Counted from the stretch's first letter, positions 25,605 to 64,000 are shown. The stretch is DNA of 64,000 bases from Escherichia coli 042 (GCF_000027125.1 NC_017626.1), one strand, 5' to 3'. The notes: a model not told the origin generated them from the letters alone. Numbers and translations: made by a program.

Positions 25605-25705
25605 ATAAATTCCTAAAGTTGTTTTCTTGCGATTTTGTCTCTCTCTAACCCGCATAAATACTGGTAGCATCAGCATTCAACTGGATAAAATTACAGGGAT
25701 GCAGA

Positions 25706-28700: not shown

Positions 28701-29503
28701 GCAAAGTCCTGAAAGATTTGCCCAAACCAAACCAGAGCGATGAAAAAACTCAGGCAACTGACGCGGTTAATCTCTTCAAACAGTTGAAAAAAGATGTACG
28801 CGCCATAGCCAGCCAGCAGATTGATCGTCTGGAACAGGCTATGTGCCAGCGCAGACGCTGGACGGCAGAGCAGTTCCGCCTGTTTCTGGTGGAGCATCCG
28901 CTGGTACGTCACTTAACCCGACGGCTGTTATGGGGGGTTTATAACGATGAAAACGCCCTTATCACCTGTTTTCGCGTGGCAGAAGACAGCACTTACAGCG
29001 ATGCGCAGGATGAGTTATTCACGCTGCCAGCAGGAAACATCGGTATACCGCATGTGCTGGAAATCCCCCCTGAATCCGCCGCTGCATTCAGGCAAATTTA
29101 CGTTGATTACGAACTGCTTCCCCCTTTCCAACAGCTCGAACGTGGTAGTTACCACCTTGCTGATAACGAACGTAATGTCCATGAATTGTCACGCTGGGAC
29201 GGACGGCTCTGCCAGGCTGGTCGCATTGTCGGGCTGGAACGCAGAGGCTGGCAACGTCTGGAAGAAAGCGGCAGCGTCTATGCGATGCGCAAATCTACCC
29301 CTTATGGTGCTCTCGAACTTGAAACAGAACCTTTTTCATTAATTTATGGCGAAACGGGGTATAGCGACCTGCTGCCTGTCGAAAGCGTAAAAATCACCGC
29401 CCCTTATGATCGCTATGGTAAACAATCCTCACCCACTTTCTCCGTGCTCGACGACATCACCGCCAGCGAGCTGATTAACGACATTGAATCACTGTTTGAT
29501 TAA
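25706..29503 (+). CDS. molR: Large WGR-domain / DUF4132-like protein, paralog 1 (molR-like, intact here)
   Basis: 1265-aa uninterrupted ORF; N-terminal about 75 aa (KFWAVEQQGNELHINWGKVGTNGQ...KKGY) fits the WGR domain pattern; C-terminal two-thirds homologous to paralogs 2 and 3. Symbol is a tentative assignment. Confidence 0.75.
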   Translation: MRHFIFQDEKSHKFWAVEQQGNELHINWGKVGTNGQSQVKSFADAAAAAKAELKLIAEKTKKGYVENASANVHIPPITKATPEVETSLESKNKRPWLADDAVIPVTDDINRFAFPHRSRPREINYLYKDGQIWQLIANNTRAYDPANNYRSYPENWQQAFAELQMRVQGNQQTGSAQSDAALLWSFWNSYSADELVDDLVIRCGLESAVEIALLALQLRYKPVKGAVTTIIPPNHKAESLPSWHQRLCHHLSLASEDEWQRCVDKVLAAIPTLSPARQPFAALLLPECPDIANAMALRYADQNVPAMTWLRLVVTDDAALTTAEKYDFPPLYHDFRAYLAMLLANNGVRGVSRILLEFTEEHSDNPTYLFERISETEDLVKWLWKTNHPDAIQILILGVIGKKKHLEYLSKACQKHPAAALAAYATLLAIHEDKEWRKALVKLITATPELVTDVIPRVNAKAAGILSECRTQLVAEECEYATADMLPELFVAPPWVINKKTNVIPVFDLPVLPIPAVTDITPGITELISHTDISRFSEIAQFQSSQQTLFTDLPLIEKESWETSFIPFTPEQQILWQLGFNEWLHCEDDLHEKKYIPQSAVDALLRFDFPALKAEFAKYHNNANKSWNLSALCYLPGQQAISFLNQIIIEERYSGEKEILAVFGSTAIPAFMTCLQRDHQRLWIFTLFIGASELALPMAQRLQKKMAYKDAVNWLANNPRHATAGLLPLALGKPCQNREYARQALRLLVKLNQRETIEEIARRYNQPDVLAALATLFDSDPLEEYPAKIAPPPGFYQFTLWRRPRLKSNNLPLPDDAMRHLGTMLSFPRDITAYAGLATIKETFTRESLADFGWDLYTAWTEAGAPAKENWAFTSLGILGNDDTARKLTPLIRAWPGESQHKRAVYGLDVLASIGSDIALMLLNGIAQKIKFVALQEHASDRINMVAENRGLTMAELEDRLAPDLGLDSSGSLTLDFGPRQFTVGFDETLKPVVRDANGKVLKDLPKPNQSDEKTQATDAVNLFKQLKKDVRAIASQQIDRLEQAMCQRRRWTAEQFRLFLVEHPLVRHLTRRLLWGVYNDENALITCFRVAEDSTYSDAQDELFTLPAGNIGIPHVLEIPPESAAAFRQIYVDYELLPPFQQLERGSYHLADNERNVHELSRWDGRLCQAGRIVGLERRGWQRLEESGSVYAMRKSTPYGALELETEPFSLIYGETGYSDLLPVESVKITAPYDRYGKQSSPTFSVLDDITASELINDIESLFD

Positions 29504-29515
29504 AAGGATTTAACA

Positions 29516-32500: not shown

Positions 32501-33277
32501 GATGAGGCGGTAAACCGCTACAAACTCCTGAAAAAAGATACGCGTACCGTCGCCGCCCAGCAGGTGACAAGGCTTGAATCCGCCATGTGCCTGCGCCGCC
32601 GCTGGTCGCCGGAAAACTTTCAGCTCTTCCTGGTTGAACACCCGCTGGTTCGCCACTTAACCCGCCGTCTGATTTGGGGCGTTTATAGCGCCGAAAACAA
32701 GCTACTGGCTTGCTTTCGGGTGGCGGAAGATAACAGCTACAGCACCGCTGACGATGATCTTTTCACCCTGCCAGAAGGCGATATCTCTGTTGGCATTCCT
32801 CACGTTCTGGAAATATCACCCACGGATGCCGCTGCCTTTGGTCAGCTTTTTGCCGACTACGAACTGTTACCGCCGTTCCGCCAGCTCGACCGTAACAGTT
32901 ACGCCCTGACAGAAACCGAGCGCAATGCCAGCGAATTGATCCGCTGGGCAGGCAGAAAATGCCCGAGCGGTCGGGTAATGGGGCTGGCGAATAAAGGCTG
33001 GATGCGTGGTGAACCGCAGGACGGTGGCTGGATCGGCTGGATGATCAAACCTCTGGGCCGCTGGTCGTTAATCATGGAAATCGATGAAGGTTTTGCGGTC
33101 GGCATGTCGCCAGCCGAACTCAGTGCCGAGCAACTCTTAAGCAAGCTGTGGCTATGGGAAGGCAAAGCGGAAAGCTATGGCTGGGGGAGTAATTCAACAC
33201 AGGAAGCGCAGTTCTCCGTACTCGATGCCATCACCGCCAGCGAACTCATTAACGATATTGAAGCCCTGTTTGAATAA
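29516..33277 (+). CDS. Large WGR-domain / DUF4132-like protein, paralog 2
   Basis: 1253-aa ORF; first about 200 nt nearly identical to paralog 1, central region divergent, C-terminal region similar at protein level; 12-nt gap with SD after paralog 1. Confidence 0.75.
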   Translation: MKTYIYQDEKSHKFWAVEQQRNELHINWGKVGTNGQSQVKSFADAAAAEKAELKLIAEKTKKGYVEEVSVITPTSVPVQVIECPEIAPLPQDKPVFVGDNLPWLADDAQIILPTEVAPTTLSHRRWPGDPVPQENELTLLRSVAANTHRRFKKVITFDYSTCSLDWQQAITQAVGLIDSPISTTLPPMVLAVLVALEQGFNRNDHEELMDQIVQEGGLEYATEVVIALQFIRFDWDYDAHLITFTPDDRQPGYLLRFASVEMRLRKHFSLANDDVWQRCADKLIAALGNMPAWHQPLVALLLPEKPEVAHEIARHFCGQKGLYALEWLKLTVTDAQVLADLEKYYPGQPGQVFDDYYGGNIWCATALQEQGVTALARFAHYATGDTCGEVLMHINHPQALTLLIHASEQGKRCHDRMTKAFVRFPHAALAALAELLAQKDEKRWRMMLMTMLISQPILAEQVIPWLSTPAVAVLKSCQQQLKQPSNHASADMLPAILVSPPWLSKKKKSVMPVLDLTPLPLESCCTLTETAEKEIHARHRWHAHQIDIGQKEDIQNYLTRLGFNRWNNGQYMKASDAVVELWQRGDYSALISEFKTFWHSYQREWQLYMLAALPIEKTAQAWNVLSKEPHVGVEFVMTHLQLAGLQGFIHSFSRYPQEALPVAQYFAAIELAPLIARAFNKLKTLRQDARSWLLKYPEHAITGLLPAALGKAGEAQDNARAALRMLTENGHQPLLQEIARRYNQPEVTDAVNALLALDALDNHPTKIPTLPAFYQPSLWTRPVLKANAQSLPDSALLRLGEMLRFPQEEALYPGLLQVKAACTADSLAEFAWDLFTAWQTAGAPSKESWAFTALGVLGNDDTARKLTPLIRAWPGESQHKRATVGLDILAAISSDIALMQLNGIAQKLKFKALQERAKEKIADIAESRELTVAELEDRLAPDLGLDDNGSLLLDFGPRQFTVSFDETLKPFVRDASGSRLKDLPKPNKSDDESRADEAVNRYKLLKKDTRTVAAQQVTRLESAMCLRRRWSPENFQLFLVEHPLVRHLTRRLIWGVYSAENKLLACFRVAEDNSYSTADDDLFTLPEGDISVGIPHVLEISPTDAAAFGQLFADYELLPPFRQLDRNSYALTETERNASELIRWAGRKCPSGRVMGLANKGWMRGEPQDGGWIGWMIKPLGRWSLIMEIDEGFAVGMSPAELSAEQLLSKLWLWEGKAESYGWGSNSTQEAQFSVLDAITASELINDIEALFE

Positions 33278-33286
33278 GGAAAGAGC

Positions 33287-48739: not shown

Positions 48740-49471
48740 ATGGCGCTTTACACAATTGGTGAAGTGGCGTTGCTTTGTGATATTAACCCTGTCACGTTAC
48801 GCGCGTGGCAGAGGCGTTACGGATTGCTGAAACCGCAACGGACAGACGGCGGTCATCGGCTGTTCAATGATGCCGATATTGACCGGATCCGCGAGATCAA
48901 ACGCTGGATCGACAACGGCGTGCAGGTCAGCAAAGTAAAAATGCTGCTCAGTAATGAAAATGTTGATGTGCAGAACGGCTGGCGCGATCAGCAAGAAACA
49001 TTACTGACTTACCTGCAAAGCGGCAATCTGCATAGCCTGCGAACGTGGATCAAAGAGCGCGGTCAGGATTACCCCGCCCAGACACTCACCACGCATCTGT
49101 TTATTCCTCTGCGCCGACGACTTCAGTGCCAACAACCGACCCTCCAGGCGCTGCTGGCGATCCTCGACGGCGTACTGATCAACTACATCGCCATTTGCCT
49201 GGCTTCGGCACGTAAAAAACAGGGTAAAGATGCGCTGGTGGTTGGCTGGAATATTCACGATACCACCCGTCTGTGGCTGGAGGGCTGGATTGCCAGTCAA
49301 CAAGGATGGCGCATTGATGTCCTCGCCCACTCGCTCAATCAACTACGCCCTGAACTGTTCGAAGGCCGTACATTGCTGGTGTGGTGCGGTGAAAATCGAA
49401 CCTCCGCCCAACAGCAGCAACTCACCAGTTGGCAGGAACAAGGCCATGATATTTTCCCACTCGGCATTTAA
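48740..49471 (+). CDS. mlrA: MerR-family transcriptional regulator MlrA (csgD activator)
   Basis: 243-aa ORF with N-terminal MerR HTH (YTIGEVALLCDINPVTLRAWQRRYGL). Confidence 0.88.
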   Translation: MALYTIGEVALLCDINPVTLRAWQRRYGLLKPQRTDGGHRLFNDADIDRIREIKRWIDNGVQVSKVKMLLSNENVDVQNGWRDQQETLLTYLQSGNLHSLRTWIKERGQDYPAQTLTTHLFIPLRRRLQCQQPTLQALLAILDGVLINYIAICLASARKKQGKDALVVGWNIHDTTRLWLEGWIASQQGWRIDVLAHSLNQLRPELFEGRTLLVWCGENRTSAQQQQLTSWQEQGHDIFPLGI

Positions 49472-49530
49472 TGATTCGTTAACAAATGCGCTTTACTGTA
49501 CAATCCTTTCGTTAACATAAGGAGTGCATT

Positions 49531-49638
49531 ATGCGCATAGCTAAAATTGGGGTCATCGCCCTGTTCCTGTTTATGGCGTTAGGCGGAATTGGTGGCGTCA
49601 TGCTCGCAGGTTATACCTTTATTTTGCGTGCTGGCTAA
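49531..49638 (+). CDS. yohO: 35-aa small membrane protein
   Basis: ATG with [41 protein letters not shown]; overlaps the 3' end of convergent yehW by 20 nt. Not in the ORF track (under 60 aa). Confidence 0.6.
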
Positions 49639-50350
49639 GCGCCTGCACCAGCCTTTCAAACAGGCGGTCTGCAATGATCGCCGCCAGTGCCACCAGTAAC
49701 GCCCCCTGGATCACATACGCGGTATTAAATCCGCTAAGCCCGATGATGATCGGCGTACCCAGCGTGCTGGCCCCTACCGTTGAGGCGATCGTCGCCGTAC
49801 CAATGTTGATAATCACCGAAGTTCGCACGCCCGCCAGAATCACCGGAGCCGCCAGCGGTAGCTCGACCTTACGCAGTCGCTGACCACGGCTCATTCCCAT
49901 ACCTTTCGCAACTTCTGTCACGCTGGCATCAATCGCTCCCAGCCCGGCAAGTGTTGCCTGCAGGACGGGCAGCACGCCGTAAAGGATCAAGGCGATAATC
50001 GCGGGTTGCAGACCAAAGCCGATCACCGGAACGGCAATCGCCAGCACCGCGACGGGCGGAAAAGTCTGTCCAACGGCGGCAATAGTTTCCACCAGTGGGC
50101 GAAATTCCGCGCCCCAAGGGCGAGTGACAGCAATTCCGGCACCAGTACCAATGATCACCGCAAACAAACTCGAAATTCCCACCAGCCAGAAATGAGCCAG
50201 TGCCAGAACTGCAAAACTTTCTTGCTGATAAACGGGTCGTGGCAGTTGTGGGAACAAGGCTGCAAACAGCGGCTGGCTGTAAGGCAGCCAGAAAATCAGC
50301 GCCACAAACAGAGCAATGAGCCAGAACAGCGGATCGCGCAACATCTTCAT
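49619..50350 (-). CDS. yehW: Osmoprotectant ABC transporter permease
   Basis: 243-aa membrane ORF with ABC permease EAA-like loop; operon osmF-yehYXW. Confidence 0.88.
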
Positions 50351-50354
50351 ACGT

Positions 50355-51281
50355 TTACGCCTCCACCAGCAGATCCTGAAAATGCAGCGTGCCGCAAGGC
50401 TCGCCCTGCGTGTTCACCACCGGCAGCACTTCACATCCCCGCGCGACAAACAGGGAGAGTGCATCGCGTAGCGTCATCTCTTCTGCCAGCGCCTCACCTT
50501 CTGCCCGTTCTTCGCGACGCACGTAATCCGCCACGCTACGTAACGAAAGCAGGCGGACACCCAGTTCACTATGCCCAAAAAACTGGCGGACAAAATCATT
50601 CGCCGGACGAGTCAGCATCGTCAGCGGATTGCCCTGCTGCACCACTTCACCGTGATCCATCAACACCAGATGTTCTGCCAGCCGTAGCGCCTCATCAATA
50701 TCATGAGTGACCAGCACAATAGTGCGCCCCAGCAAACGGTGAATGCGCGTCATCTCTTGTTGCAACGCGCCGCGCGTTACCGGGTCCAGCGCGCCAAAAG
50801 GTTCATCCATCAGTAAGACTTGCGGATCGGCAGCCAGTGCGCGCGCCACTCCCACACGTTGCTGCTGACCACCGGAAAGCTGATGCGGATAACGCTCACG
50901 CAAATTTGGCTCCAGCCCCAGTAGCGCCATTAATTCGTCGATACGATCGTCGATCCGCGCCCGTGACCATTTTTGTAATTGCGGCACGGTGGCAATATTT
51001 TGCGCCACGCTCCAGTGGGGAAACAGGCCAATAGATTGAATGGCATAGCCCATCCGGCGGCGCAACTCCAGCACTGGCAGCGAGCGAATTTCTTCTCCGG
51101 CAAAGCGGATCACGCCACTGTCATGCTCCACCAGGCGGTTAATCATTTTCAGAGTGGTGGATTTACCGGAGCCTGATGTACCAATCAGCACCGAAAAACT
51201 CCCCTCCTGAAAATTGAGATTGAGATCGTTAACGGCTTTTTGTATGCCGAACAGTTTGCTGACATGGCTAAATTCAATCAT
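50355..51281 (-). CDS. yehX: Osmoprotectant ABC transporter ATP-binding protein with C-terminal CBS domains
   Basis: Walker [10 protein letters not shown], signature LSGGQQQR, Walker B LLMDEP. Confidence 0.9.
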
Positions 51282-52431
51282 TACGTTTCACCTTCAGCAG
51301 TGCGATAAGCAAATCGAACAGCGCATCGATCAGCACCGCCAGAACAATTACCGGGATCACCCCTAGCAACACTAAATCAATGGCACTGCTTAGCAGCCCC
51401 TGGAAAACCAGCGCACCAAAACCGCCTGCGCCGATTAACGCCGCAATCACCGCCATGCCGACGGTTTGCACCATCACCACCCGCAGGCTACGCAGAAATA
51501 CCGGTAACGCCAGTGGTAACTGAACATGCAGGAATCGCTGCGCCCCGCTCATGCCCATCGCTCTGGCGCTCTCCAGCACATCGCGCGGGATCTGGTTCAA
51601 GCCGACTACCACGCCGCGCACCAGCGGCAGCAAGGCATAGAGCACCAGCGCAATCAGTGCGGGTGTCATTCCGGTTCCTGCTATGCCGAGCTTACCCAGC
51701 CACGGAAAGGCCGTAACCAGTGCGGCAAGCGGCGCAATCAACAGGCCAAAGAGCGCCACCGAAGGCACGGTCTGAATGACATTCAGCAGAGAAAAAATCG
51801 CCCCCTGCCGCGCAGTGGAAAAGTAGCACCAGACGCCCAGCGGCACACCAATCACTAACGCAGGCAGCACCGCACCAAACAGCAACGTCAGATGTTGCGC
51901 CAGCGCGTCATCAAACACATCCCGACGGTTGGCGTATTCTTTCATTAGCGAGAGATCGTTAAGCGTGCCGGAGTACAGCAACCACAGCGGAATAATGGCA
52001 ATCTGCATATGCAACAACCAGCGCCACAGCGGATGCGTGGAGATTCGGCGGATGGCATCGCTACAGGCCAGCAATGCCAGCGCCGCAGCCAGCCAGAAAC
52101 CACTGCCGAGGCTGGTACGCGCCAGCGCACTGCCATTTTGTGCCAGTTGTGTCGCCGCCTTTCCTGCTCCCCACACCAGCGATACGAAGACGAATTGCGC
52201 CAGAATGAGTGCAAAAATGCTGCCTTTTTTAGCGGGAATAAAACAGGCTGTCATCCAGGCGCAACCAACGCCCACCAGCATCCAGATCGTTTGCGGCCAA
52301 AGCTGCCAGAGATGACGCCCCTCACCCGAAACTAAACGATTAGGCGCGTAACTGATAAACGGCAGCGCCGCTGCGATTGCCGTCAGCAACAGCAGCAGCG
52401 CCAGAACAGGATTAATACGTAGATAAGTCAC
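51274..52431 (-). CDS. yehY: Osmoprotectant ABC transporter permease
   Basis: 385-aa polytopic membrane ORF. Confidence 0.88.
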
Positions 52432-52437
52432 GGGAAA

Positions 52438-53355
52438 TTACTTCGTCCACCCTTTTTGTTTCAGGTAGTCGGCAGCCACTTTTTTGGCATCCAGTCCTTC
52501 CACAGCAATGCTGGCATTCAGTTGCTGCAATGTTTTTTCATCGAGGCTGGCGAAGACTGGCTGTAGCCACTGTGCCATTTGCGGATACTCCTTCAACACC
52601 GATTCACGCACCACTGGTGCAGGCGCGTAGATAGGTTGCACGCCTTGCGGATCGCTTAAGGTTTGCAGCCCCAGCGCCGCGACCGGACCGTCGGTACCGT
52701 AAGCCATTGCGGCATTAACGCCAGAGGTTTGCTGAGCAGCGGCTTTGATCGTCACTGCCGTATCGCCACCAGCCAGTGACAGCAACTGATCCTGACCGAG
52801 CTTAAAGCCATAGGCTTTTTCAAACGCGGGTAAGGCATCGGCGCGTTCAATAAATTCTGCCGAGGCCGCCAGTTTGAAGGTGCCGCCCTCTTTCAGATAA
52901 CGACTCAGGTCGGCAAGCGAAGTGAGTTTGTTTTTCTCTGCCACATCCTGACGCACGGCGATGGTCCAGGTGTTATTTGCAGGCGCAGGCGTCAGCCAGA
53001 TTAACTTGTTTTGTTCTGCATCGAGCTTTTTGACTTTCTCGTAGCCTTGCCCGGCATTTTTCCACGCCGCATCGTTTTCATCTTTAAAGAAAAACGCGCC
53101 ATTGCCGGTATATTCCGGATAGATATCCAGTTCACCGGAAGTAATCGCCCCGCGCACCACGGGAGTCGTTCCCAGTTGCACTTTATTTACCGTAGGAACA
53201 CCGTGACTTTCCAGCACCTGCAAAATGATATTGCCGAGCAGCGCGCCTTCGGTATCGATTTTTGAACCGACCTTAACGGGGGAAGCCGCCTGTAGCGGCA
53301 GGCTCACGGCTGCCAACAAAACCAATGAACCTGCCCAGAGCTTTGAGAGTGGCAT
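52438..53355 (-). CDS. osmF: Periplasmic glycine betaine-binding protein OsmF (YehZ)
   Basis: 305-aa ORF with signal peptide. Confidence 0.88.
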   Translation of the reverse strand: MPLSKLWAGSLVLLAAVSLPLQAASPVKVGSKIDTEGALLGNIILQVLESHGVPTVNKVQLGTTPVVRGAITSGELDIYPEYTGNGAFFFKDENDAAWKNAGQGYEKVKKLDAEQNKLIWLTPAPANNTWTIAVRQDVAEKNKLTSLADLSRYLKEGGTFKLAASAEFIERADALPAFEKAYGFKLGQDQLLSLAGGDTAVTIKAAAQQTSGVNAAMAYGTDGPVAALGLQTLSDPQGVQPIYAPAPVVRESVLKEYPQMAQWLQPVFASLDEKTLQQLNASIAVEGLDAKKVAADYLKQKGWTK

Positions 53356-53469
53356 GATGCTTTCCTCATTCTTTTACTGTTGTTTTCAGCGAATTAAGAG
53401 AAAAGCATAGTTGATAATGACAGGGTTAGCCTGTCTGGGCAGATTCAGTTGCAGAATCAGATAAATACT

Positions 53470-53495
53470 TAAAGGGCGCAAACGTCGCGCCCTTA
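53470..53495 (-). terminator. Putative terminator downstream of bglX
   Basis: gggcgc-aaacgtc-gcgccc hairpin followed on the minus strand by uuuaag. Confidence 0.5.
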
Positions 53496-53503
53496 CTAAA
53501 GCA

Positions 53504-55801
53504 TTACAGCAACTCAAACTCGCCTTTCTTAACGCGTGCGGAATCAGTGCCGATGAAGACATTGAACTTGCCAGGCTCGGCGTCATATTTCATCTGTTGA
53601 TTCCAGAACTTCAGCGCCTCGATATCAATCGGGAAGCTGACGGTCTGAGTTTCGCCCGGTTTCAGGGTGATTTTCTCAAAGCCTTTCAGCTGCTTCACCG
53701 GACGACTCATGGAAGCCGTCACATCCTGCAAGTACATCTGCACTACCGTCGCCCCTTCGCGCTTACCGGTGTTCGTCACCTGCACACTGGCGGTCACTTT
53801 GCCGTCACGCTTCATGGTCGGCGCAGAAAGTTTCACATCAGAGACGGTGAAAGTGGTGTAGCTCAGACCATAACCGAACGGATACAGCGCCCCGTTAGCT
53901 TCATCAAAATAACGCGAAGTGTATTTGTTCGGCTTGTCGGCATTATACGGACGCCCGGTATTCAGATGGCTGTAGTACACAGGGATCTGCCCGACAGAAC
54001 GCGGGAAGGACATCGGTAGCTTACCGGACGGGTTGTAATCGCCAAACAATACATCGGCAATCGCATTACCCCCTTCCGTACCCGCAAACCAGGTTTCCAG
54101 AATCGCATCAGCCTGCTGATCTTCTTTCACCAGCGCCAGCGGACGCCCATTCATCAGCACCAGCACCAGCGGTTTACCAGTGGCTTTCAACGCCGCAATC
54201 AAGTCACGTTGGCTTTGCGGAATAGTAATATCGGTACGGCTGGAGGCCTCGTGCGCCATCCCCTGAGCTTCACCGACCACAGCCACCACCACATCAGATT
54301 GTTTCGCGGTTTGCACCGCTTCATCAATCATCTCTTGCGGCGAACGCGGATCGACTTTGACCGCCTCTTCATACTGATTCAGGAAATCGATAATGCCTTT
54401 GTCACTGGTGACGTTCGCCCCTTTGGCGTACAGCACTTTACCGTTTTCACCGACGGCATTTTTAATCCCGGTCAGTACGGTCACGGATTGATCGGCAACA
54501 CCGGCTGCGGACCAGCTGCCCATCACGTCACGTTTACTGTCCGCCAGTGGCCCAACCACCGCAATGGTGGCCGATTTTTTCAGCGGTAACGTTTCGAGAC
54601 GGTTTTTCAGCAACACCAGGCTTTCACGCGCCACTTCACGCGCTTCTTTGCGGTGCAGGCGGCTTTCGGCATTGGTATCCACCGGGTCAGACTCTTTCGG
54701 CCCCAAATGGCTGTATGGGTCGTTAAACAACCCCATATCATATTTAACGTTCAGTACATGACGGGTAGCGTCATCCAGCTCTTCCATCGTCACTTTGCCG
54801 GATTTGATCAACCCAGGCAGATACTTCGAGTAGTACTCGTCGCTCATACTCATGTTGATGCCGGATTTCAGCGCCACGCGCACCGCATCTTCCGGGTCTG
54901 CCGCCGTGCCATGTTTAATCAGCTCTTTGATTGCGCCGTGATCGGAAACGGTGATGCCTTTAAAGCCCCACTGGTCGCGCAGAACATCTTTCAGCAGCCA
55001 TGAATCGGAGGTGGCTGGCGTGCCGTTCAGCGAGTTCAGCGCCACCATCACCGCGCCGCTGCCTGCGTCCAGCCCCGCTTTGTACGGCGGCATATAATCA
55101 TTAAACAGGCGCTGCGGACTCATATCGACGGTGTTGTACTCTTTACCGCCTTCTACCGCACCGTATGCGGCAAAGTGTTTGACGCTGGTCATCACCGAGT
55201 AGCGATCTGCCGGACTTTTACCCTGCATCGCTTCCACCATGGTTTTACCCATTGTTGAAGTGAGATACGTATCTTCGCCAAAACCTTCGGAAGCACGTCC
55301 CCAGCGCGGATCGCGCGAGACATCGACCATCGGTGCCCAGGTCATATTCAGGCCATCATCTGCCGCTTCATAAGCAGAGACACGCCCGACTGTTTTCACC
55401 GCATCGAGGTTAAAAGACGAGGCCAGGCCGAGGCTAATCGGGAACACCGTGCGCTGACCGTGCAGCACGTCGTAAGCAAAGAAAAGAGGAATTTTCAGGC
55501 GGCTTAATTCCATCACCTGATCCTGCATGGCGCGGATATCCTGACGGGTTACGGTGTTGAAAATCGCCCCAACCTGACCGTCTTTGATCATCTCGCGGAT
55601 CGCCTCTTTCGGATTATCCGGGCCGACGCTGATTAAGCGCAGCTGACCAATTTTCTCATCAACTGTCATTTTCTTAAGCAGTTCGGTGACGAACGCATCC
55701 CGCGCTTCGGGCGTTAATGGATGGTTGCCGAATAAATCATCTGCCAGTGCTGGCTGCAGGGCCAGACTCACCGCGATTCCTACTGAACATAGCCATTTCA
55801 T
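53504..55801 (-). CDS. bglX: Periplasmic beta-glucosidase (GH3)
   Basis: 765-aa ORF from MKWLCSVGIA with signal peptide; GH3 family. Confidence 0.92.
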   Translation of the reverse strand: MKWLCSVGIAVSLALQPALADDLFGNHPLTPEARDAFVTELLKKMTVDEKIGQLRLISVGPDNPKEAIREMIKDGQVGAIFNTVTRQDIRAMQDQVMELSRLKIPLFFAYDVLHGQRTVFPISLGLASSFNLDAVKTVGRVSAYEAADDGLNMTWAPMVDVSRDPRWGRASEGFGEDTYLTSTMGKTMVEAMQGKSPADRYSVMTSVKHFAAYGAVEGGKEYNTVDMSPQRLFNDYMPPYKAGLDAGSGAVMVALNSLNGTPATSDSWLLKDVLRDQWGFKGITVSDHGAIKELIKHGTAADPEDAVRVALKSGINMSMSDEYYSKYLPGLIKSGKVTMEELDDATRHVLNVKYDMGLFNDPYSHLGPKESDPVDTNAESRLHRKEAREVARESLVLLKNRLETLPLKKSATIAVVGPLADSKRDVMGSWSAAGVADQSVTVLTGIKNAVGENGKVLYAKGANVTSDKGIIDFLNQYEEAVKVDPRSPQEMIDEAVQTAKQSDVVVAVVGEAQGMAHEASSRTDITIPQSQRDLIAALKATGKPLVLVLMNGRPLALVKEDQQADAILETWFAGTEGGNAIADVLFGDYNPSGKLPMSFPRSVGQIPVYYSHLNTGRPYNADKPNKYTSRYFDEANGALYPFGYGLSYTTFTVSDVKLSAPTMKRDGKVTASVQVTNTGKREGATVVQMYLQDVTASMSRPVKQLKGFEKITLKPGETQTVSFPIDIEALKFWNQQMKYDAEPGKFNVFIGTDSARVKKGEFELL

Positions 55802-55996
55802 ATGGATTTTTCTTCCTCTGTTGCCCGACGAGGCAGCGAAAATAGTGCAAAAACCGTAGTTTGCCATAAGCATGATAGAGAGAGAAAAAGAATGCTCAGT
55901 TTATTGTCTGAATTTTCAAAATATTCACTCGCTGAATTGTCATACAAGGCGCTATTCTAGTTTGTGATATTTTTTCGCCACCACAAGGAGTGGAAA

Positions 55997-57712
55997 ATGT
56001 CTTCCATGACAACAACTGATAATAAAGCCTTTTTGAATGAACTTGCCCGACTGGTGGGTTCTTCACACCTGCTCACCGATCCCGCAAAAACGGCCCGCTA
56101 TCGCAAGGGCTTCCGTTCTGGTCAGGGCGATGCACTGGCTGTCGTTTTCCCTGGCTCACTACTGGAATTGTGGCGGGTGCTGAAAGCCTGCGTCACCGCC
56201 GACAAAATTATTCTGATGCAGGCAGCCAATACAGGTCTGACCGAAGGCTCGACGCCAAACGGTAACGACTATGATCGCGATATCGTGATCATCAGCACCC
56301 TGCGTCTCGACAAGCTGCACGTTCTTGGCAAGGGCGAACAGGTGCTGGCCTATCCGGGCACCACGCTTTATTCGCTGGAAAAAGCCCTCAAACCGCTGGG
56401 ACGCGAACCGCACTCGGTGATTGGCTCATCGTGTATAGGCGCATCGGTCATCGGCGGTATTTGTAACAACTCCGGCGGCTCGCTGGTGCAGCGTGGCCCG
56501 GCGTATACCGAAATGTCGTTATTCGCGCGTATAAATGAAGACGGCAAACTGACGCTGGTGAACCATCTGGGGATTGATCTGGGCGAAACGCCGGAGCAGA
56601 TCCTTAGCAAGCTGGATGACGATCGCATCAAAGATGACGATGTGCGCCACGATGGTCGTCACGCCCACGATTATGACTATGTCCACCGCGTTCGTGATAT
56701 TGAAGCCGACACGCCCGCACGTTATAACGCCGATCCGGATCGGTTATTTGAATCTTCTGGTTGCGCCGGGAAGCTGGCCGTCTTTGCGGTACGTCTTGAT
56801 ACCTTCGAAGCGGAAAAAAATCAGCAGGTGTTTTATATCGGCACCAACCAGCCAGAAGTACTGACCGAAATCCGCCGTCATATTCTGGCTAATTTCGAAA
56901 ATCTGCCGGTTGCCGGGGAATATATGCACCGGGATATCTACGATATTGCGGAAAAATACGGCAAAGACACCTTCCTGATGATTGATAAGTTAGGCAGCGA
57001 CAAGATGCCGTTCTTCTTTAATCTCAAGGGGCGCACCGATGCGATGCTGGAGAAAGTGAAATTCTTCCGTCCGCATTTTACCGACCGTGCGATGCAAAAA
57101 TTCGGTCACCTGTTCCCCAGCCATTTACCGCCGCGCATGAAAAACTGGCGCGATAAATACGAGCATCATCTGCTGTTAAAAATGGCGGGCGATGGCGTCG
57201 GTGAAGCCAAATCGTGGCTGGTGGATTATTTCAAACAGGCCGAAGGCGATTTCTTTGTCTGTACGCCGGAGGAAGGTAGCAAAGCGTTTTTACACCGTTT
57301 CGCCGCTGCGGGCGCAGCAATTCGTTATCAGGCGGTGCATTCCGATGAAGTCGAAGACATTCTGGCACTGGATATCGCTCTGCGGCGTAACGACACCGAG
57401 TGGTATGAGCATTTACCGCCGGAAATCGACAGCCAGCTGGTGCACAAGCTCTATTACGGCCATTTTATGTGCTATGTCTTCCATCAGGATTACATCGTTA
57501 AAAAAGGCGTGGATGTGCATGCGTTGAAAGAACAGATGCTGGAACTGCTGCAGCAGCGTGGCGCGCAATATCCTGCCGAACATAACGTCGGTCATTTGTA
57601 TAAAGCACCGGAGACGTTGCAGAAGTTTTATCGCGAGAACGATCCGACCAACAGTATGAATCCGGGGATCGGTAAAACCAGTAAGCGGAAAAACTGGCAG
57701 GAAGTGGAGTAA
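55997..57712 (+). CDS. dld: FAD-dependent D-lactate dehydrogenase (quinone)
   Basis: 571-aa ORF from MSSMTTTDNK. Confidence 0.92.
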   Translation: MSSMTTTDNKAFLNELARLVGSSHLLTDPAKTARYRKGFRSGQGDALAVVFPGSLLELWRVLKACVTADKIILMQAANTGLTEGSTPNGNDYDRDIVIISTLRLDKLHVLGKGEQVLAYPGTTLYSLEKALKPLGREPHSVIGSSCIGASVIGGICNNSGGSLVQRGPAYTEMSLFARINEDGKLTLVNHLGIDLGETPEQILSKLDDDRIKDDDVRHDGRHAHDYDYVHRVRDIEADTPARYNADPDRLFESSGCAGKLAVFAVRLDTFEAEKNQQVFYIGTNQPEVLTEIRRHILANFENLPVAGEYMHRDIYDIAEKYGKDTFLMIDKLGSDKMPFFFNLKGRTDAMLEKVKFFRPHFTDRAMQKFGHLFPSHLPPRMKNWRDKYEHHLLLKMAGDGVGEAKSWLVDYFKQAEGDFFVCTPEEGSKAFLHRFAAAGAAIRYQAVHSDEVEDILALDIALRRNDTEWYEHLPPEIDSQLVHKLYYGHFMCYVFHQDYIVKKGVDVHALKEQMLELLQQRGAQYPAEHNVGHLYKAPETLQKFYRENDPTNSMNPGIGKTSKRKNWQEVE

Positions 57713-57716
57713 AAAT

Positions 57717-57745
57717 TACGGATGGCAGAGTATCGCCATCCGAAT
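57717..57745. terminator. Hairpin between convergent dld and pbpG
   Basis: ggatggc-agagtat-cgccatcc inverted repeat in the 37-nt convergent intergenic gap. Confidence 0.5.
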
Positions 57746-57749
57746 TCAC

Positions 57750-58682
57750 TTAATCGTTCTGTGCCGTCTGCCCCGCCGCCGCCATTTGGGCGGCTTTTTG
57801 TTTTTTATAGCTCAACGCTGCTGCCGGAACAGGCATCACTTTACCGGTCTCAATCCAGGTACGCAGGCGGCTGGCATCGGCAAAATGGGTATATTTGCCA
57901 AACGCGTCCATCACTACCAGCGCCACCGGTTTATTATTGATAACCGTACGCATCACCAGACAATGGCCCGCCGCATTGGTAAAGCCGGTTTTGGTTAACT
58001 GAATATTCCAGTTATCGCGATACACCAGATGGTTAGTATTGCGGAACGGCAGCGTATACGTCGGGTTAGAGAAGGTTGCCATATCTTCCCGGGTGGTACT
58101 TAACTGCCCGATCAACGGATATTGTTTGCTGGCAATGAGCAGTTTGGTTAAGTCACGGGCGGTTGAAACGTTATGCACCGACAATCCGGTCGGTTCAACA
58201 AAGCGCGTGTTGTTCATTCCGAGCGATTTCGCTTTCGCATTCATCGCCTTAATAAAGGCTTTGTAACCACCGGGATAATGGTGCGCAAGGCTTGCCGCCG
58301 CGCGGTTTTCTGAAGACATCAGCGCCAGCAACAGCATATCTTTACGGCTGATTTCGCTATTCAGTCGTACGCGCGAATAGACCCCTTTCATCTCCGGCGT
58401 CTGGCTGATATCCACTTTTAGTTTTTCATCCAGCGGCAGTCGCGCATCCAGCACGACCATCGCGGTCATTAATTTGCTGATAGACGCAATCGGACGCACC
58501 AGATCCGGGTGGTTCGAATAGATCACTTTGTTGGTATTCAGATCAACAATCATCGCGCTACCGGAGGCAATTTCCGGCTGTGAAGCGGTGGTAGCGGCTG
58601 CCGTTTTCGCAACGGCCTGCGGTGCCAAAGGCACAGCCAGCATCAGGGCCAGGCTAAATAAAGAAACTCGAAATTTCGGCAT
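57750..58682 (-). CDS. pbpG: D-alanyl-D-alanine endopeptidase PBP7
   Basis: SxxK motif (SISK), signal peptide; start at MPKFRV. Confidence 0.9.
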
Positions 58683-58855
58683 GATGAGCATTCAGATAGT
58701 GGTTCACGCGCACGGGTTGCGCACCGCCGGAGTAAGGATTTACTGAGGCTAGCGACGCCATCATAACGAGCAAAAAGTGCGATCGTCAAAGGAGAATCGT
58801 GAGGAAATGCTGCATTGCTGACATTTACGCCAGCAATGCAACACAAAAGTACTTT

Positions 58856-59443
58856 CTAGAACAAACGATAACCGTAGCCCCATAGTATAACGGTAAGGGC
58901 GAGCAGCACTTCCAGCACCAGCACGCCAATCGCCAGCGTCGAACTGGAGAAGCTAAGGCCTTCCTCTTTGTTGATATTCAGGAAGCTCGGAATACCGAGA
59001 TAAAGCAGGTAGCCGGTGTAAAACAGCGCCACCGTGCCGACCAGCGCACACAACCAGACCAGTGGATAAAGCGCCACCAGACCGCTTAAAAACAGCGGAG
59101 TTGCAACGTAGCCCGCGAAGACCATGCAGTGCGCAAGTGATGGACGTTGCGGATAATTGCGCGCCATCCACCAGATGACCCGCCCCATCACCGCGACCCC
59201 AGCCAGCATAACGCCATAAAACAAGACAGCCAGCGCCAGTCCGGTAAACCAGGATAACTTCAGGATAGTGCCATCGCCAAAATTCCAGCCAATCTGTGTA
59301 GTGCCAATGAAGGCGCAAATCACCGGAATCGCCGCCATCAGCAAAACGTGGTGGGTGTAATGGTGAGAAATCGTTTCGTTTTCGCGATTAATCACCTGCA
59401 TTTCACGATCGGGATGGGAAAACAGTCCCCAGACATGGCTCAT
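58856..59443 (-). CDS. yohC: Yip1-family inner membrane protein
   Basis: About 195-aa polytopic membrane ORF; start choice (MSHVWG) uncertain. Confidence 0.75.
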   Translation of the reverse strand: MSHVWGLFSHPDREMQVINRENETISHHYTHHVLLMAAIPVICAFIGTTQIGWNFGDGTILKLSWFTGLALAVLFYGVMLAGVAVMGRVIWWMARNYPQRPSLAHCMVFAGYVATPLFLSGLVALYPLVWLCALVGTVALFYTGYLLYLGIPSFLNINKEEGLSFSSSTLAIGVLVLEVLLALTVILWGYGYRLF

Positions 59444-59612
59444 ACCGCCCCCTTGTTGTGAGTTCATGAACCTGACAGTTCAAGTATAAGTCAGCTTGTG
59501 ATTATTTTTTGTTCGTTCATGTAATTTGCACCGTCTGATGTACGTCCTTTTTCAGCGTGAACTATTCACAGGGTGTATGCTTACAGGCAAGCAAAGGGAG
59601 ACAGACTGGCCT

Positions 59613-60191
59613 ATGGATCTCAATACACTCATCTCACAATATGGTTATGCCGCGCTGGTGATCGGTAGCCTGGCGGAAGGTGAAACCGTGACTTTGCTGG
59701 GAGGCGTTGCGGCACATCAGGGGCTATTAAAGTTCCCGCTGGTGGTACTTTCTGTGGCGCTTGGCGGCATGATTGGCGACCAGGTGCTTTATCTGTGCGG
59801 GCGGCGCTTTGGCGGCAAGCTATTACGCCGTTTCTCGAAACATCAGGATAAAATTGAGCGGGCGCAGAAACTTATCCAACGCCATCCGTATCTGTTTGTC
59901 ATTGGTACGCGTTTTATGTATGGCTTTAGGGTGATTGGCCCGACGCTGATTGGTGCCAGCCAGCTGCCGCCGAAAATCTTTCTGCCACTGAATATCCTTG
60001 GCGCATTTGCCTGGGCGTTGATTTTTACCACTATCGGTTACGCTGGTGGTCAGGTGATTGCGCCGTGGTTGCACAATCTCGACCAGCATTTGAAGCACTG
60101 GGTCTGGTTGATTCTGGTCGTGGTTCTGGTGGTAGGCGTGCGCTGGTGGCTGAAACGGCGCGGGAAGAAAAAGCCGGATAATCAGGCATAA
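59613..60191 (+). CDS. yohD: DedA-family inner membrane protein
   Basis: 192-aa ORF from MDLNTLISQYGY; the ORF track start is an over-extension. Confidence 0.8.
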   Translation: MDLNTLISQYGYAALVIGSLAEGETVTLLGGVAAHQGLLKFPLVVLSVALGGMIGDQVLYLCGRRFGGKLLRRFSKHQDKIERAQKLIQRHPYLFVIGTRFMYGFRVIGPTLIGASQLPPKIFLPLNILGAFAWALIFTTIGYAGGQVIAPWLHNLDQHLKHWVWLILVVVLVVGVRWWLKRRGKKKPDNQA

Positions 60192-60243
60192 AGCAGTTGC
60201 CACAGATAAGCATTCACGCCACATCCGGCACCGGATGTTCCAT

Positions 60244-60280
60244 GCCTGATGCGACGCTGGCGTGTCTTATCTGGCCTAAC
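60244..60280. repeat. REP element
   Basis: gcctgatgcgacgctggcgtgtcttatctggcctaac matches REP consensus; between convergent yohD and yohF. Confidence 0.7.
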
Positions 60281-60309
60281 CCAATGAAATAACCACGCAC
60301 CTCACTGCG

Positions 60310-61071
60310 CTATTCTGGGTTGAACTGCGGATTCGCCAACATAAAGCCGCCATCCACTATCAACGACTGCCCAGTGGTGTAATTTGCGCCCTCCGAACAA
60401 AGCCACATCACCAGGCTGGCAATCTCATGCGTTGCGCCAAAACGCCGCAAGGGAATCGAAGGCTCCGCGCCGGGCTTCACGTCGCCATCATCCATGCCGT
60501 TCATTGGCGTGGCGATCGCCCCAGGTGCAACCGCATTCACCAAAATCTTATGCCTGACCAGCTCCAGCGCCATCGCTTTGGTTAACCCGCCGAGCGCATG
60601 TTTAGCGGCTGTGTAGGCGCTGGCATCCGGCAACGGCGTATGTTCATGCACCGACGTAATGTTGATGATGCGACCACCCTGCCCTTGTTTCACCATCTGG
60701 CGGGCAGCAATTTGCGAGCATAAAAATGCACCATCGACATCAACGGTAAAAATCTTGCGCCACTCATCGAAAGCCATATCAAGAAACGGCGCTTTGGTCA
60801 TTGCGCCCGCATTATTCACCAGCACATCAATACGCCCCAGCCGTTGAATGAGTTTCTCCAGCGCCAGTGCCCCTTCTGGTAGATTGCCGAGATCCAGCTG
60901 CACGATCTCCGCACGTACGCCGTGGCTAACCACCTCACGCGCGGTATCTTTTGCCCCTTCTTCATCAGAGTGCCAGGTAATACCAATATCAAACCCCTGC
61001 TGCGCCAGTAATAACGCGCACTCTTTGCCGATCCCCGAATCGGAGGCGGTAATAATCGCAACCTGTGCCAT
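60310..61071 (-). CDS. yohF: Short-chain dehydrogenase/reductase
   Basis: N-terminal TASDSGIG Rossmann motif; catalytic YxxxK (YTAAK). Confidence 0.88.
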   Translation of the reverse strand: MAQVAIITASDSGIGKECALLLAQQGFDIGITWHSDEEGAKDTAREVVSHGVRAEIVQLDLGNLPEGALALEKLIQRLGRIDVLVNNAGAMTKAPFLDMAFDEWRKIFTVDVDGAFLCSQIAARQMVKQGQGGRIINITSVHEHTPLPDASAYTAAKHALGGLTKAMALELVRHKILVNAVAPGAIATPMNGMDDGDVKPGAEPSIPLRRFGATHEIASLVMWLCSEGANYTTGQSLIVDGGFMLANPQFNPE

Positions 61072-61123
61072 CGAGTTCTCCACTTAACGCTGAATAAACG
61101 TTAAGTATAGAAGGCGCATATCA

Positions 61124-62560
61124 TCAGCGTTTGTAACCCCCGCCCAACGCACCAGTGAGTTGAATGGAGGCATCCAGCCACTGCCCTTGCAATAACAGGC
61201 CATTGGCCCGCTCGCGAAGCGCCGGGATTCTGGCTTCGCTGACGCGGGAACCGGCAATGATGCCCGCGTTAAAGCGCGCCTGCGCAAGACCTACTACACG
61301 CAAGGCATCGCGCTCAATTTGCGCCTGATGCTGGTTTTTCTCCGCCAGTGTCTGAACCTGACTGGCTGCCCGCGCCACGTCATTCACCGCTTCAACCACC
61401 GCTTTGTTGTAGCTGGCGATAGACAAGTTGCTTTCGGCTTTTGCGATATCGAGGTTGGCGTTAAGACGACCACTATCGAAAATGGGTAGCGTCAGGCCTG
61501 CCGTAACGCCCATTTGCTGCGCGGAATGACGGAACAGATCGCTTAAGTGCAACGCATCCTGTTGCAGGAAGGCCATCAGGTTGATGTCAGGATAAAATGC
61601 CGCTTTTGCCGCATCAATGGTGCTTAGCGATGACTCAACGTACCAGTGCGCCGCCTGCAAATCTGCCCGCCGGGCCAGTAAGGAGTACCCCAGTTCATCA
61701 GGAAGCTGGCTTGCCACTTTCGGCAACGCGACCGGTTTAAGCTTCAGTGACTTTGTCTGGTGATTTGTGAGTGCATTTAACCGTGCCTCAATAATTTTCA
61801 TTTTCCCCGCGACATCGTTGAGCTGCTGCCGGGTTTTGCTGGCATTAATATCGGTTTCCACACCTTCAACTGAAGAAGTAATCCCGTTCTGATATAGCTG
61901 GCGATCGGTGGCGATAATGGTGTTCTGCTCTTTTTCGATTTGCTGTAAGACAGTGTTTAACGCCGCCTGGGTTTGCCACTCCCAGTACAGACGGGCTACG
62001 CTGCCAGCCAGCAATTGGCGGGTTTGCTCGCGTTCCGCCGCCCGTGCTTTAACCGTACCCAGGCGAGCAGTAACCTCCGCCCGATTCTTTCCCCAGATAT
62101 CGAGATGCCAGCCCGCCGTTAAGCCAAAAGTACCGTTGGTGTACCACGGACCGGTCGTACCTGCGGCAGGATCGTTCAGAGCAAACGGCCCCATTAACCC
62201 TTCTGCCGACATTTTTTGCCGCTCCATATCCGCAGAAAAGTCGATCTGCGGACCATCCTGAGTGGCAACTGCCTTCGCCTGGGCTTCAGCCAGCTGAATG
62301 CGCTGTTCAGCCACCTGCATATCCGGTGCGTTCTGTAGTGCATTGTTAATTAATGAAGTGAGTTGATTATCGTGATACTCCAGCCACCATTGGCTGTCTG
62401 GCCAACCATTTTTCAGCGCCGTGGGTAATGCGGTGTCAACTTGTGAAGCGGGCGTTTGCTGGCTTAACGCCTGGCGGGTTTCATGCATAGGCGCACACCC
62501 GGCCAGCATCAGTAACAGCGGAAAACAGGCGATGGCGGGATAAAAGGAATCACGATTCAT
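61124..62560 (-). CDS. mdtQ: Outer-membrane efflux lipoprotein (OMF/NodT family), apparently intact
   Basis: About 478-aa uninterrupted ORF with lipoprotein signal (LLLMLAGC) from MNRDSF; this gene is recalled as a pseudogene in K-12. Confidence 0.75.
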   Translation of the reverse strand: MNRDSFYPAIACFPLLLMLAGCAPMHETRQALSQQTPASQVDTALPTALKNGWPDSQWWLEYHDNQLTSLINNALQNAPDMQVAEQRIQLAEAQAKAVATQDGPQIDFSADMERQKMSAEGLMGPFALNDPAAGTTGPWYTNGTFGLTAGWHLDIWGKNRAEVTARLGTVKARAAEREQTRQLLAGSVARLYWEWQTQAALNTVLQQIEKEQNTIIATDRQLYQNGITSSVEGVETDINASKTRQQLNDVAGKMKIIEARLNALTNHQTKSLKLKPVALPKVASQLPDELGYSLLARRADLQAAHWYVESSLSTIDAAKAAFYPDINLMAFLQQDALHLSDLFRHSAQQMGVTAGLTLPIFDSGRLNANLDIAKAESNLSIASYNKAVVEAVNDVARAASQVQTLAEKNQHQAQIERDALRVVGLAQARFNAGIIAGSRVSEARIPALRERANGLLLQGQWLDASIQLTGALGGGYKR

Positions 62561-62783
62561 GGGGGAATAATCAGGTAAGAAAAGGTGCGCGGAGATTACC
62601 GTGTGTTGCGATATATTTTTTAGTTTCGCGTGGCAATACATCAGTAGCAATAAAACGACATATCCAGAAAAATATACACTAAGTGAATGATATCTTCCGA
62701 TTTATCTTAATCGTTTATGGATAACGGCAAAGGGCTTCGTTTTTTCCTATACTTATTCAGCACTCACAAATAAAGGAACGCCA

Positions 62784-62867
62784 ATGAAAATTATACTCTG
62801 GGCTGTATTGATTATTTTCCTGATTGGGCTACTGGTGGTGACTGGCGTATTTAAGATGATATTTTAA
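62784..62867 (+). CDS. yohP: 27-aa small membrane protein
   Basis: MKIILWAVLIIFLIGLLVVTGVFKMIF with AGGAA SD 7 nt upstream; below the ORF-track size cut-off. Confidence 0.6.
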   Translation: MKIILWAVLIIFLIGLLVVTGVFKMIF

Positions 62868-62939
62868 AATTAATTAATGTCATCAGATCCGAAAATAACG
62901 AGAATATTTCAGTCTCTCATCCTGTTGCGCTCCTGTCAT

Positions 62940-63200
62940 GTGCATTGCTTCATATAATCACTGGCGCAAGGAGCGCGCAGGGGGCGACCAATCGCCGCCG
63001 CCCCCTGCACCCCCGGGCTCTGGCGAACAAAATCGCCGCTGCGCGGTGCCCTCGGCTTATCCCTTACGGCTACCGGGTCGGGCGCGAGGTAACATCCCTG
63101 TAAAACGCGCCCTCAGCCCACATCCATGTGGGCTGCCCCGGCCTTCGGGGAACGCCTCGGCGATTTTGACGCCACCAAACAACCGTGCGGCCTATTGATA
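62940..63200. repeat. GC-rich non-coding block with nested hairpins (unclassified structured element)
   Basis: Local GC visibly far above neighbouring intergenic DNA; hairpins cagggggcg...cgccccctg, cagcccacat-cc-atgtgggctg, ccccggccttcgggg. Confidence 0.4.
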
Positions 63201-63239
63201 AAGAGCTAACACATTGTCAAAAAACATCACTATGGTTTT

Positions 63240-64000
63240 TTAGAGTTTCTCGATATCAATTGCCTGAATAGCCCTTGCAATATCAGGGGAATTATTCAAC
63301 ACCCGAACATGCTGAAATAATTCCGTTGCTTCATCGTATTCTTTACGCAAATAACTCAACCACTGTTTAATCCGCGCAACGTGATATAACCCGGTATCGC
63401 CCTGCTTTTCCAGACGGGTATATTTTTGCAGCAAAGCAACTACCTCCGGCCACGGCATTCGCGGTTCGTTATATTTTACCACCCGGCTCAGGTTGGGAAT
63501 ATTGAGCGCCCCGCGACCAATCATCACTGCGTCACAGCCGCTGATCGCCATGCATTGTTGCGCGCTCTGCCAGTCCCAGATTTCACCGTTGGCAATCACC
63601 GGAATATTCAGCCGCTGGCGAATCTCGCCAATCGCCTGCCAGTCAATATGCTCCGCGCGGTAACCCTGCTCTTTCGTCCGCCCATGCACCACCAGCTCTG
63701 TAGCACCAGCCTGTTGAACCGCATCGGCGATTTCAAATTTCTTCTCACCGCTGTCCCAGCCCAGACGCACTTTTACGCTGACGGGCAAATGCGCCGGTAC
63801 AACTTCACGCATCGCTTTTGCCCCCTGGTAGATGAGTTCAGGATCTTTGAGTAACGTCGCGCCGCCGCCGCTACCGTTAACCGTTTTCGACGGGCAGCCG
63901 CAATTGAGATCCACACCCCAGGAACCTAACTCGACCGCACGGGCGGCATTCTCTGCCAGCCATTGTGGGAACTGACTTAACAACTGCACGCGCACCAGCG
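63240..64000 (-). CDS. dusC: tRNA-dihydrouridine synthase C, 3' portion (5' end beyond window)
   Basis: TIM-barrel Dus family sequence; ORF runs off the right edge of the window. Confidence 0.85.

Follow-up and report, generated by a model that had tools for sequence, protein, structure and literature searches.

Single-helix membrane peptides have been described in several roles, and the antisense arrangement of convergent genes forms a class of its own. KdpF, AcrZ, and MgtS are small single-helix accessory subunits of transporters, and the type I toxins and depolarising peptides exemplified by TisB and ZorO are proteins of fewer than 50 amino acids (aa) with one transmembrane helix. Excludons are pairs of genes with overlapping transcripts; in the well-studied cases, the antisense transcript is long and a reciprocal effect has been demonstrated. 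Here we compare with these systems two very small genes, yohO and yohP, carried by a stretch of 64,000 nucleotides from Escherichia coli 042 (GCF_000027125.1, NC_017626.1), the whole of which is referred to below as the window. Both open reading frames (ORFs) are real, already annotated E. coli small membrane protein genes. We regard it as nearly certain that they are true genes, each transcribed and translated on its own, for peptides that span the inner membrane once; the same holds for the account of YohP, YohO, and the overlap of yohO with the neighboring gene yehW that is given below. The finding is correct but ordinary and carries little weight as a discovery. Databases or papers already contain the two genes and the fact that they are translated, the way in which YohP works, the ArcA site at yohO, and the overlap between the yohO and yehW transcripts.

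With the ORF length threshold set to 20 aa, both frames are visible, and they lie at the exact ends of the interval 49531-62867, where a reading made from the sequence alone had placed two tiny hydrophobic proteins. Its remark that they are invisible to the ORF track is true for length cut-offs around the usual 60 aa. The interval itself is a mere span between two unrelated genes, and the roughly 13 kb from yehW to mdtQ is outside the feature. The lengths of 35 and 27 aa given by the sequence-only reading are exact, and the credible Shine-Dalgarno (SD) sequences that it saw are present as TAAGGAG for yohO and AAAGGAA for yohP, each ending 6 nt before the ATG. Its description of single-helix peptides likewise holds, as the best 19-residue Kyte-Doolittle windows score 2.41 in YohO and 2.96 in YohP, and an AlphaFold2 model of YohO made from an alignment of 22 orthologues is a single helix over residues 3-33 with a kink at G19 and a mean pLDDT of 90. 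A filter was set for ATG ORFs between 20 and 50 aa long that have an SD core of 5 nt or more, positioned 4-10 nt upstream, and a hydrophobic window scoring 2.0 or higher. Only four of the 570 small ATG ORFs in the 64-kb window passed it, namely yohO, yohP, and two copies of a zorO toxin gene. Since the mean over 30 first-order Markov randomisations was 0.03 passing ORFs per window, the small-ORF observation is specific. This combination of SD and hydrophobicity picks up every known small membrane-peptide gene in the window, with zero false positives.

The gene names proposed at the outset agree with the RefSeq labels (“protein YohO” and “small membrane protein YohP”), with the K-12 MG1655 genes b4542 (yohO) and b4679 (yohP), and with NCBIfam scores above the curated cut-offs. 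YohO scores 80.1 bits against the equivalog NF010225 (cut-off 57) over positions 1-35 of 35, and its orthologues carry PF27791 (UPF0387_membrane); YohP scores 67.3 bits against the equivalog NF011345 (cut-off 58) and 50.6 bits against Pfam PF25659 (cut-off 27). A match of YohO to Pfam B12D (E-value 0.36) was dismissed as chance. The exact sequences of both peptides are present in public protein collections under these names. The yohO region, annotated in the order mlrA, yohO, yehW, occurs in 5423 of the 5426 complete E. coli genomes, and yohP with its promoter occurs in 5421 of them, with an identity of at least 99% in 5354.

Published experiments provide direct evidence for translation. YohO shows Ribo-seq coverage in the correct frame (bioRxiv 10.1101/2020.05.05.079178), a passage of the same preprint describes it, at second hand, as “membrane-bound,” and the peptide has been seen by top-down mass spectrometry (PMC12529367). 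YohP that is SPA-tagged on the chromosome, with its native promoter, builds up in stationary-phase cells, during growth in minimal medium, and when oxygen is limiting (PMC12719787), and the FLAG-tagged Salmonella orthologue is made as a protein that is nearly gone in an rpoS mutant (PMC5437024). The sequence-only reading had named ribosome occupancy of the two ORFs as the check on its proposal, and the answer is given by the Ribo-seq and mass spectrometry of YohO and by tagged YohP in both E. coli and Salmonella. It might still be argued that one or both ORFs are untranslated chance frames, or that their transcripts act as non-coding small RNAs (sRNAs): both genes are very short, a simple scan for plus-strand sigma-70 consensus promoters found none for either (minus-strand promoter-like sites were at chance level), and the Salmonella yohP transcript was initially catalogued as the sRNA STnc1330 (PMC5437024). 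The chance expectation given above, the protein-level purifying selection on yohO described below, and the existence of curated families for both peptides argue against such an explanation, which the published Ribo-seq, mass spectrometry, and epitope-tag detection have in effect already refuted, and we consider its probability negligible. Nothing points to a dual coding and RNA role for yohO or yohP.

For YohP, both the route to the membrane and the consequences of its production have been published. The peptide is recognized post-translationally by SRP (the signal recognition particle) and targeted to SecYEG or YidC (PMC7549839), and under SRP inhibition its insertion takes place instead from mRNA bound to the membrane (PMC10066597). 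It adopts mainly an N-out/C-in orientation and dimerizes via one mid-helix glycine (PMC7549839, PMC12719787). When YohP is produced, membrane potential and fluidity fall, cardiolipin rises, the Psp proteins and (p)ppGpp are induced, and metabolism slows, and deletion of yohP leads to greater sensitivity to ciprofloxacin and oxidative stress (PMC12719787). The mdtQ-yohP-dusC organization of the window is likewise that described in PMC12719787. The yohP gene itself is alike in K-12 and the window, the difference being in mdtQ (61124-62650, minus strand), which is an intact long ORF in the window and in most RefSeq genomes and is annotated as a pseudogene in K-12 MG1655. Ahead of yohP lies CTATACTT, which fits the sigma-S -10 consensus and is presumed to be an element of that type. 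In the course of events drawn from published experiments, YohP is made from a sigma-S-type promoter on starvation or entry into stationary phase; the peptide enters the membrane post-translationally through SRP and SecYEG or YidC, or SRP-free from membrane-bound mRNA; and it dimerizes and brings about a non-lethal drop in membrane potential, which sets off the phage-shock and stringent responses and slows metabolism.

For YohO, the evidence is comparative. The cross-species sample was assembled with YehW as the probe, so that the presence of yohO was no condition of retrieval, and it comprises 80 species-representative loci (Enterobacteriaceae). A YohO homologue is convergent to yehW in 79 of them, and 78 of the 79 copies are intact, with an ATG start, a length of 34-37 aa, and an AGGAG-type SD. 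The sole disrupted copy, in Citrobacter amalonaticus AUH_CA_2023_1 (L007, 3780-3800), has an extra T in a T-run that shifts the frame, more probably through an assembly error in the homopolymer than as a true pseudogene. The locus without yohO (L080, Enterobacterales bacterium CwR94, 3726-3790) has a yehW that is 75% identical, with pta convergent downstream, and marks a lineage beyond the range of yohO. This survey therefore indicates that yohO is never seen away from yehW and that yehW can exist without yohO. The upstream gene is mlrA in 74 of the 79 loci and another gene in the remainder; in the two most divergent YohO orthologues it is metG, a helix-turn-helix (HTH) regulator gene, or a TonB-dependent receptor gene, and the 20-nt overlap with the permease gene is still there. 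YohO is a narrow family, with 17 matches at E ≤0.001 among 1.84 billion representatives in a single-sequence search, many of them frameshifted or chimeric calls, and it is confined to Enterobacteriaceae and close relatives. Pairwise comparison of nonsynonymous and synonymous differences gives a pN/pS of 0.27-0.28 at a pS of 0.57, and the protein is therefore under purifying selection. Nine columns are invariant in the alignment of 22 orthologues (M1, G19, G22, V23, M24, L25, G27, Y28, and I31). We picture YohO (35 aa, UPF0387) as one kinked helix with an invariant glycine-rich face formed by G19, G22, and G27, which would act by helix-helix packing in the membrane.

One candidate partner for such packing is the YehZYXW (OsmF) ABC transporter, of which YohO would be an accessory or regulatory subunit in the manner of KdpF, AcrZ, or MgtS. 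The invariant small-residue face of YohO suits helix packing, and in each of the 79 species loci where yohO occurs it is next to yehW, as it is in six more loci of the two most divergent orthologues, a linkage that holds even where mlrA is replaced by metG, the HTH regulator gene, or the TonB-dependent receptor gene. However, the physical overlap is enough by itself to keep yohO and yehW linked, the two genes are convergent and on different promoters, and the genome that has the 75%-identical yehW with pta in place of yohO shows that the transporter can do without YohO. No interaction data for YohO were found in the literature, and a role as a transporter subunit seems quite unlikely to us.

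The promoter region of yohO was examined in an alignment of the 75 nt upstream of the gene from 26 Enterobacteriaceae species. Conserved in this alignment are a TAyAAT -10 element, ATTAACA located 14 nt farther upstream, and the near-palindrome TTAATGnTTCATTAA, which overlaps the mlrA stop codon; the SD is kept in most of the 26 species and is weaker in a few, where it reads AGGAA, GGGAG, TGGAG, or CGGAG. When the minus strand is read, TGTTAA-type repeats appear in 11-bp phase, and ArcA was therefore considered as a regulator. An interpretation of TTAATGATTCGTTAA as a Fur-like or MerR-type palindrome was dropped, as the 11-bp-phased TGTTAA repeats match a published ArcA site. Chromatin immunoprecipitation (ChIP) analyzed by both sequencing (ChIP-seq) and array (ChIP-chip) placed an ArcA peak at yohO, for which the box is given as ttgttaacgaatcattaa (Park et al. 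2013; PMC3798270, Tables S1, S3, S4, and S8), and the yohO promoter thus has, beneath a ChIP peak obtained in vivo, the pair of direct repeats spaced by 11 bp that characterizes the ArcA regulon. In the same work the log2 expression of yohO was 7.17 in the wild type and 7.77 in an arcA deletion, with no mapped start site (PMC3798270), and in Shigella yohO showed a log2 2.96 fall under anaerobiosis (PMC4229854). ArcA binding at yohO is accordingly known already, and its conservation across genera is, as far as we found, shown only here. The second GTTAACA near the expected transcription start is possibly a further ArcA repeat element, and the conservation of box and GTTAACA in the 26 species suggests that redox control of yohO is ancestral. 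ArcA repression of yohO is plausible but weakly supported, and ArcA would exert it when respiration is limited.

Several points weigh against the account of the two peptides as drawn so far. The YohP phenotypes derive mostly from premature expression from a plasmid, and the deletion phenotypes are only mild (PMC12719787). The conservation of yohP across genera is taken from PMC12719787 and PMC5437024. The ArcA signal at yohO is a weak peak (2.5 and 1.9), and deleting arcA derepresses the gene about 1.5-fold, with expression being low (PMC3798270). Finally, the helix packing of YohO and its repression by ArcA are both inferred.

The overlap of yohO with the 3' end of convergent yehW had been put at 20 nt, which is exact, and an overlap is found in all 78 intact yohO copies, with lengths of 17 nt (2 loci), 20 nt (35 loci), and 26 nt (41 loci). 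These three classes differ by a 6-nt indel within the overlap and by one stop shift. The YehW tail encoded there is variable (QHAK, RHVK, HRREQ, and others) and the YohO tail is conserved, so that the overlap looks tolerated rather than selected. The tails of the two genes have overlapped since before these genera diverged; the conserved overlap fits selection, but descent from one ancestral arrangement explains it equally well. Because the coding regions overlap, the yohO and yehW mRNAs must overlap as well. No terminator-like site for either gene was found on either strand within 49350-49800, and the transcript overlap is therefore probably longer than 20 nt. A single plus-strand “terminator” call sits inside yohO (49548-49563) and is unconvincing. 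The minus-strand fold downstream of yehW is no better than that of shuffled sequences (z -0.15), and the plus-strand fold downstream of yohO reaches a z of -1.7 without a U-tract. Without an intrinsic terminator on either strand, the two transcripts must thus pair over at least 20 nt, in line with RNA-seq surveys. In the ExcludonFinder catalogue, yohO-yehW is one of the 165 convergent excludons that occur in 50% or more of 58 MG1655 transcriptomes (PMC12288877). The antisense transcript ends expected from the sequence are therefore supported as an observation, by the coding overlap and by this catalogue entry, and yohO-yehW has the overlapping neighbor transcripts that define a convergent excludon.

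Whether the pair also acts as an excludon is a separate matter. In that case the transcripts of yohO and osmF-yehYXW would pair and be cleaved, for instance by RNase III, or the polymerases would collide, and expression of one gene would lower that of the other, coupling redox state (through ArcA at yohO) to osmoprotectant uptake. Retention of the overlap in 78 of 78 intact copies, and in six further loci of the divergent orthologues, would fit this idea, as would the lack of a terminator near the junction on either strand and the listing of the pair in at least half of the 58 transcriptomes (PMC12288877). The different overlap lengths, however, are accounted for by one 6-nt indel and one stop shift, for which simple inheritance suffices, and the free variation of the YehW tail against a conserved YohO suggests tolerance instead of selection for pairing. 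The catalogue rests on read coverage without a test of reciprocal expression (PMC12288877), and with 165 such pairs in E. coli an overlap by itself is common. A look through the literature turned up no experiment in which expression of one of the two genes reduced that of the other. A functional excludon is therefore doubtful, though it keeps some probability.

A broader proposal is that the yohO-yehW junction is a conserved regulatory module in which either ArcA-controlled yohO transcription or the YohO peptide modulates the sigma-S- and osmotically induced OsmF-YehYXW betaine transporter. This, too, we consider unlikely. If it were true, the route would be antisense pairing of the 3' ends or helix packing with the permease, and respiratory state would be tied to osmoprotectant uptake in Enterobacteriaceae. 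As a starting point toward the function of YohO, we note the constant yehW junction, the invariant glycine face, and the ArcA box conserved across genera.

The window also offers a direct comparison with type I toxin-antitoxin systems, as it carries two tandem zorO-orzO units (37256-38390) that are 91% identical and 608 nt apart. The two 29-aa ORFs adjoin Rfam matches to the OrzO-P antitoxin RNA and are therefore zorO-type toxins. To our knowledge, this locus is absent from K-12. By analogy, YohO could be a toxin-like depolarising peptide like YohP, with the antisense 3' end of yehW serving as the antitoxin RNA. The size, single helix, and hydrophobicity of YohO do resemble those of type I toxins, zorO as part of a true type I pair passes the same ORF filter, and an antisense transcript covers the 3' end of yohO (PMC12288877). 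On the other hand, Rfam scans at gathering thresholds (yohO) and at gathering and permissive thresholds (yohP) turned up no dedicated antitoxin RNA, where OrzO-P was found at once beside zorO in the same window. Typical type I loci differ from yohO, which is present in one copy, inherited vertically, and syntenic, and no report of YohO toxicity was found in the literature. A toxin-like YohO with yehW as its antitoxin is very improbable, and yohO and yohP are not type I toxin-antitoxin loci. Positions of the features discussed are collected in Table 1.

Table 1. Positions in the window of the features of the yohO, yohP, and zorO-orzO loci.
Feature	Position	Strand	Remarks
yohO coding sequence	49531-49638	+	ATG start, 35 aa and stop; single-pass hydrophobic peptide; core M15 A16 .. 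G19 .. G22 V M L. G27 Y28
yohO SD, AGGAG (in TAAGGAG)	49520-49524	+	6 nt ahead of ATG
yohO/yehW coding overlap	49619-49638		20 nt, tail-to-tail; last 6 codons and stop in each gene
yehW	49619-50350	-	243-aa ORF; glycine betaine ABC transporter permease; last gene of osmF-yehYXW; convergent to yohO
ArcA box ttgttaacgaatcattaa	49468-49485	-	overlaps mlrA stop codon and yohO -35 region; identical to the published ArcA ChIP-seq site
-10-like hexamer TACAAT of the yohO promoter	49499-49504	+	conserved (TATAAT in most other species); putative, from alignment
Second GTTAACA	49511-49517	+	conserved; 33 nt downstream of the first; near expected transcription start
mlrA (MerR-type regulator)	48740-49471	+	upstream of yohO on the same strand; 59-nt gap
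yohP coding sequence	62784-62867	+	ATG start, 27 aa and stop; protein MKIILWAVLIIFLIGLLVVTGVFKMIF; flanked by mdtQ (divergent) and dusC (convergent)
yohP SD, AGGA (in AAAGGAA)	62774-62777	+	6 nt ahead of ATG
CTATACTT, presumed sigma-S-type extended -10	62747-62754	+	about 30 nt upstream of yohP ATG
zorO-type 29-aa toxin ORFs	37338-37427 and 37946-38035	-	next to OrzO-P matches
OrzO-P RNAs	37673-37746 and 38281-38356	+	Rfam

Some further elements were observed in the window. A segment between yohP and dusC (62925-63205, especially 63021-63179 on the minus strand) is GC-rich and gives a full-length, sub-threshold Rfam match to the TwoAYGGAY RNA (RF01731; 28.5 bits, gathering score 43), with an outer stem and two hairpins whose loops read CAUGGAUG and CAGGGAUG. 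This unannotated segment recurs in E. coli as a dispersed repeat, at a median of three places per genome. A wider query of this region (62560-63300) was less than 80% covered in about 40% of genomes, and the yohP-dusC intergenic region is therefore variable. Two RNA motifs scored above the Rfam gathering score, a Peptidase-S11 motif (58687-58767, minus strand), which coordinate transfer from strain 51008369SK1 places immediately upstream of pbpG, and a TPP riboswitch (14541-14637, minus strand). Several direct-repeat families with a spacing of about 3.7 kb and identities of 71-89% occupy 25705-35831, which suggests two or three paralogous genes in tandem; in a related strain, the genes at the transferred coordinates are annotated as DUF4132 proteins.

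Set beside the known systems, the two genes match their own families closely. The YohP of the window has the K-12 sequence (PF25659, NF011345, b4679), the same position between mdtQ and dusC, and the same SD and presumed sigma-S-type -10 element. YohO (NF010225, PF27791, b4542) is identical to YOHO_ECOLI and has the same mlrA-yohO-yehW order, with no difference found. Each is in fact the type member of its family and shows all of the family features that could be compared. Convergent excludons as catalogued by ExcludonFinder in E. coli MG1655 are convergent genes with overlapping transcripts, and yohO-yehW is itself among them; where the well-studied excludons have a demonstrated reciprocal effect, for yohO-yehW the overlap alone is documented. 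With KdpF, AcrZ, and MgtS, YohO shares the single helix and a gene beside that of a transporter. Of these three, KdpF alone is made from a transcript shared with its partner, the genes for AcrZ and MgtS lying elsewhere, whereas yohO is convergent to yehW and has no known interaction. Both peptides share their size and single transmembrane helix with TisB and ZorO, and YohP lowers membrane potential and condenses the nucleoid (PMC12719787). Unlike those toxins, yohO and yohP lack a cognate antisense antitoxin gene and are core, syntenic genes instead of being patchily distributed, and the effect of YohP is non-lethal. YohO and YohP work like other stress-induced single-helix membrane peptides.

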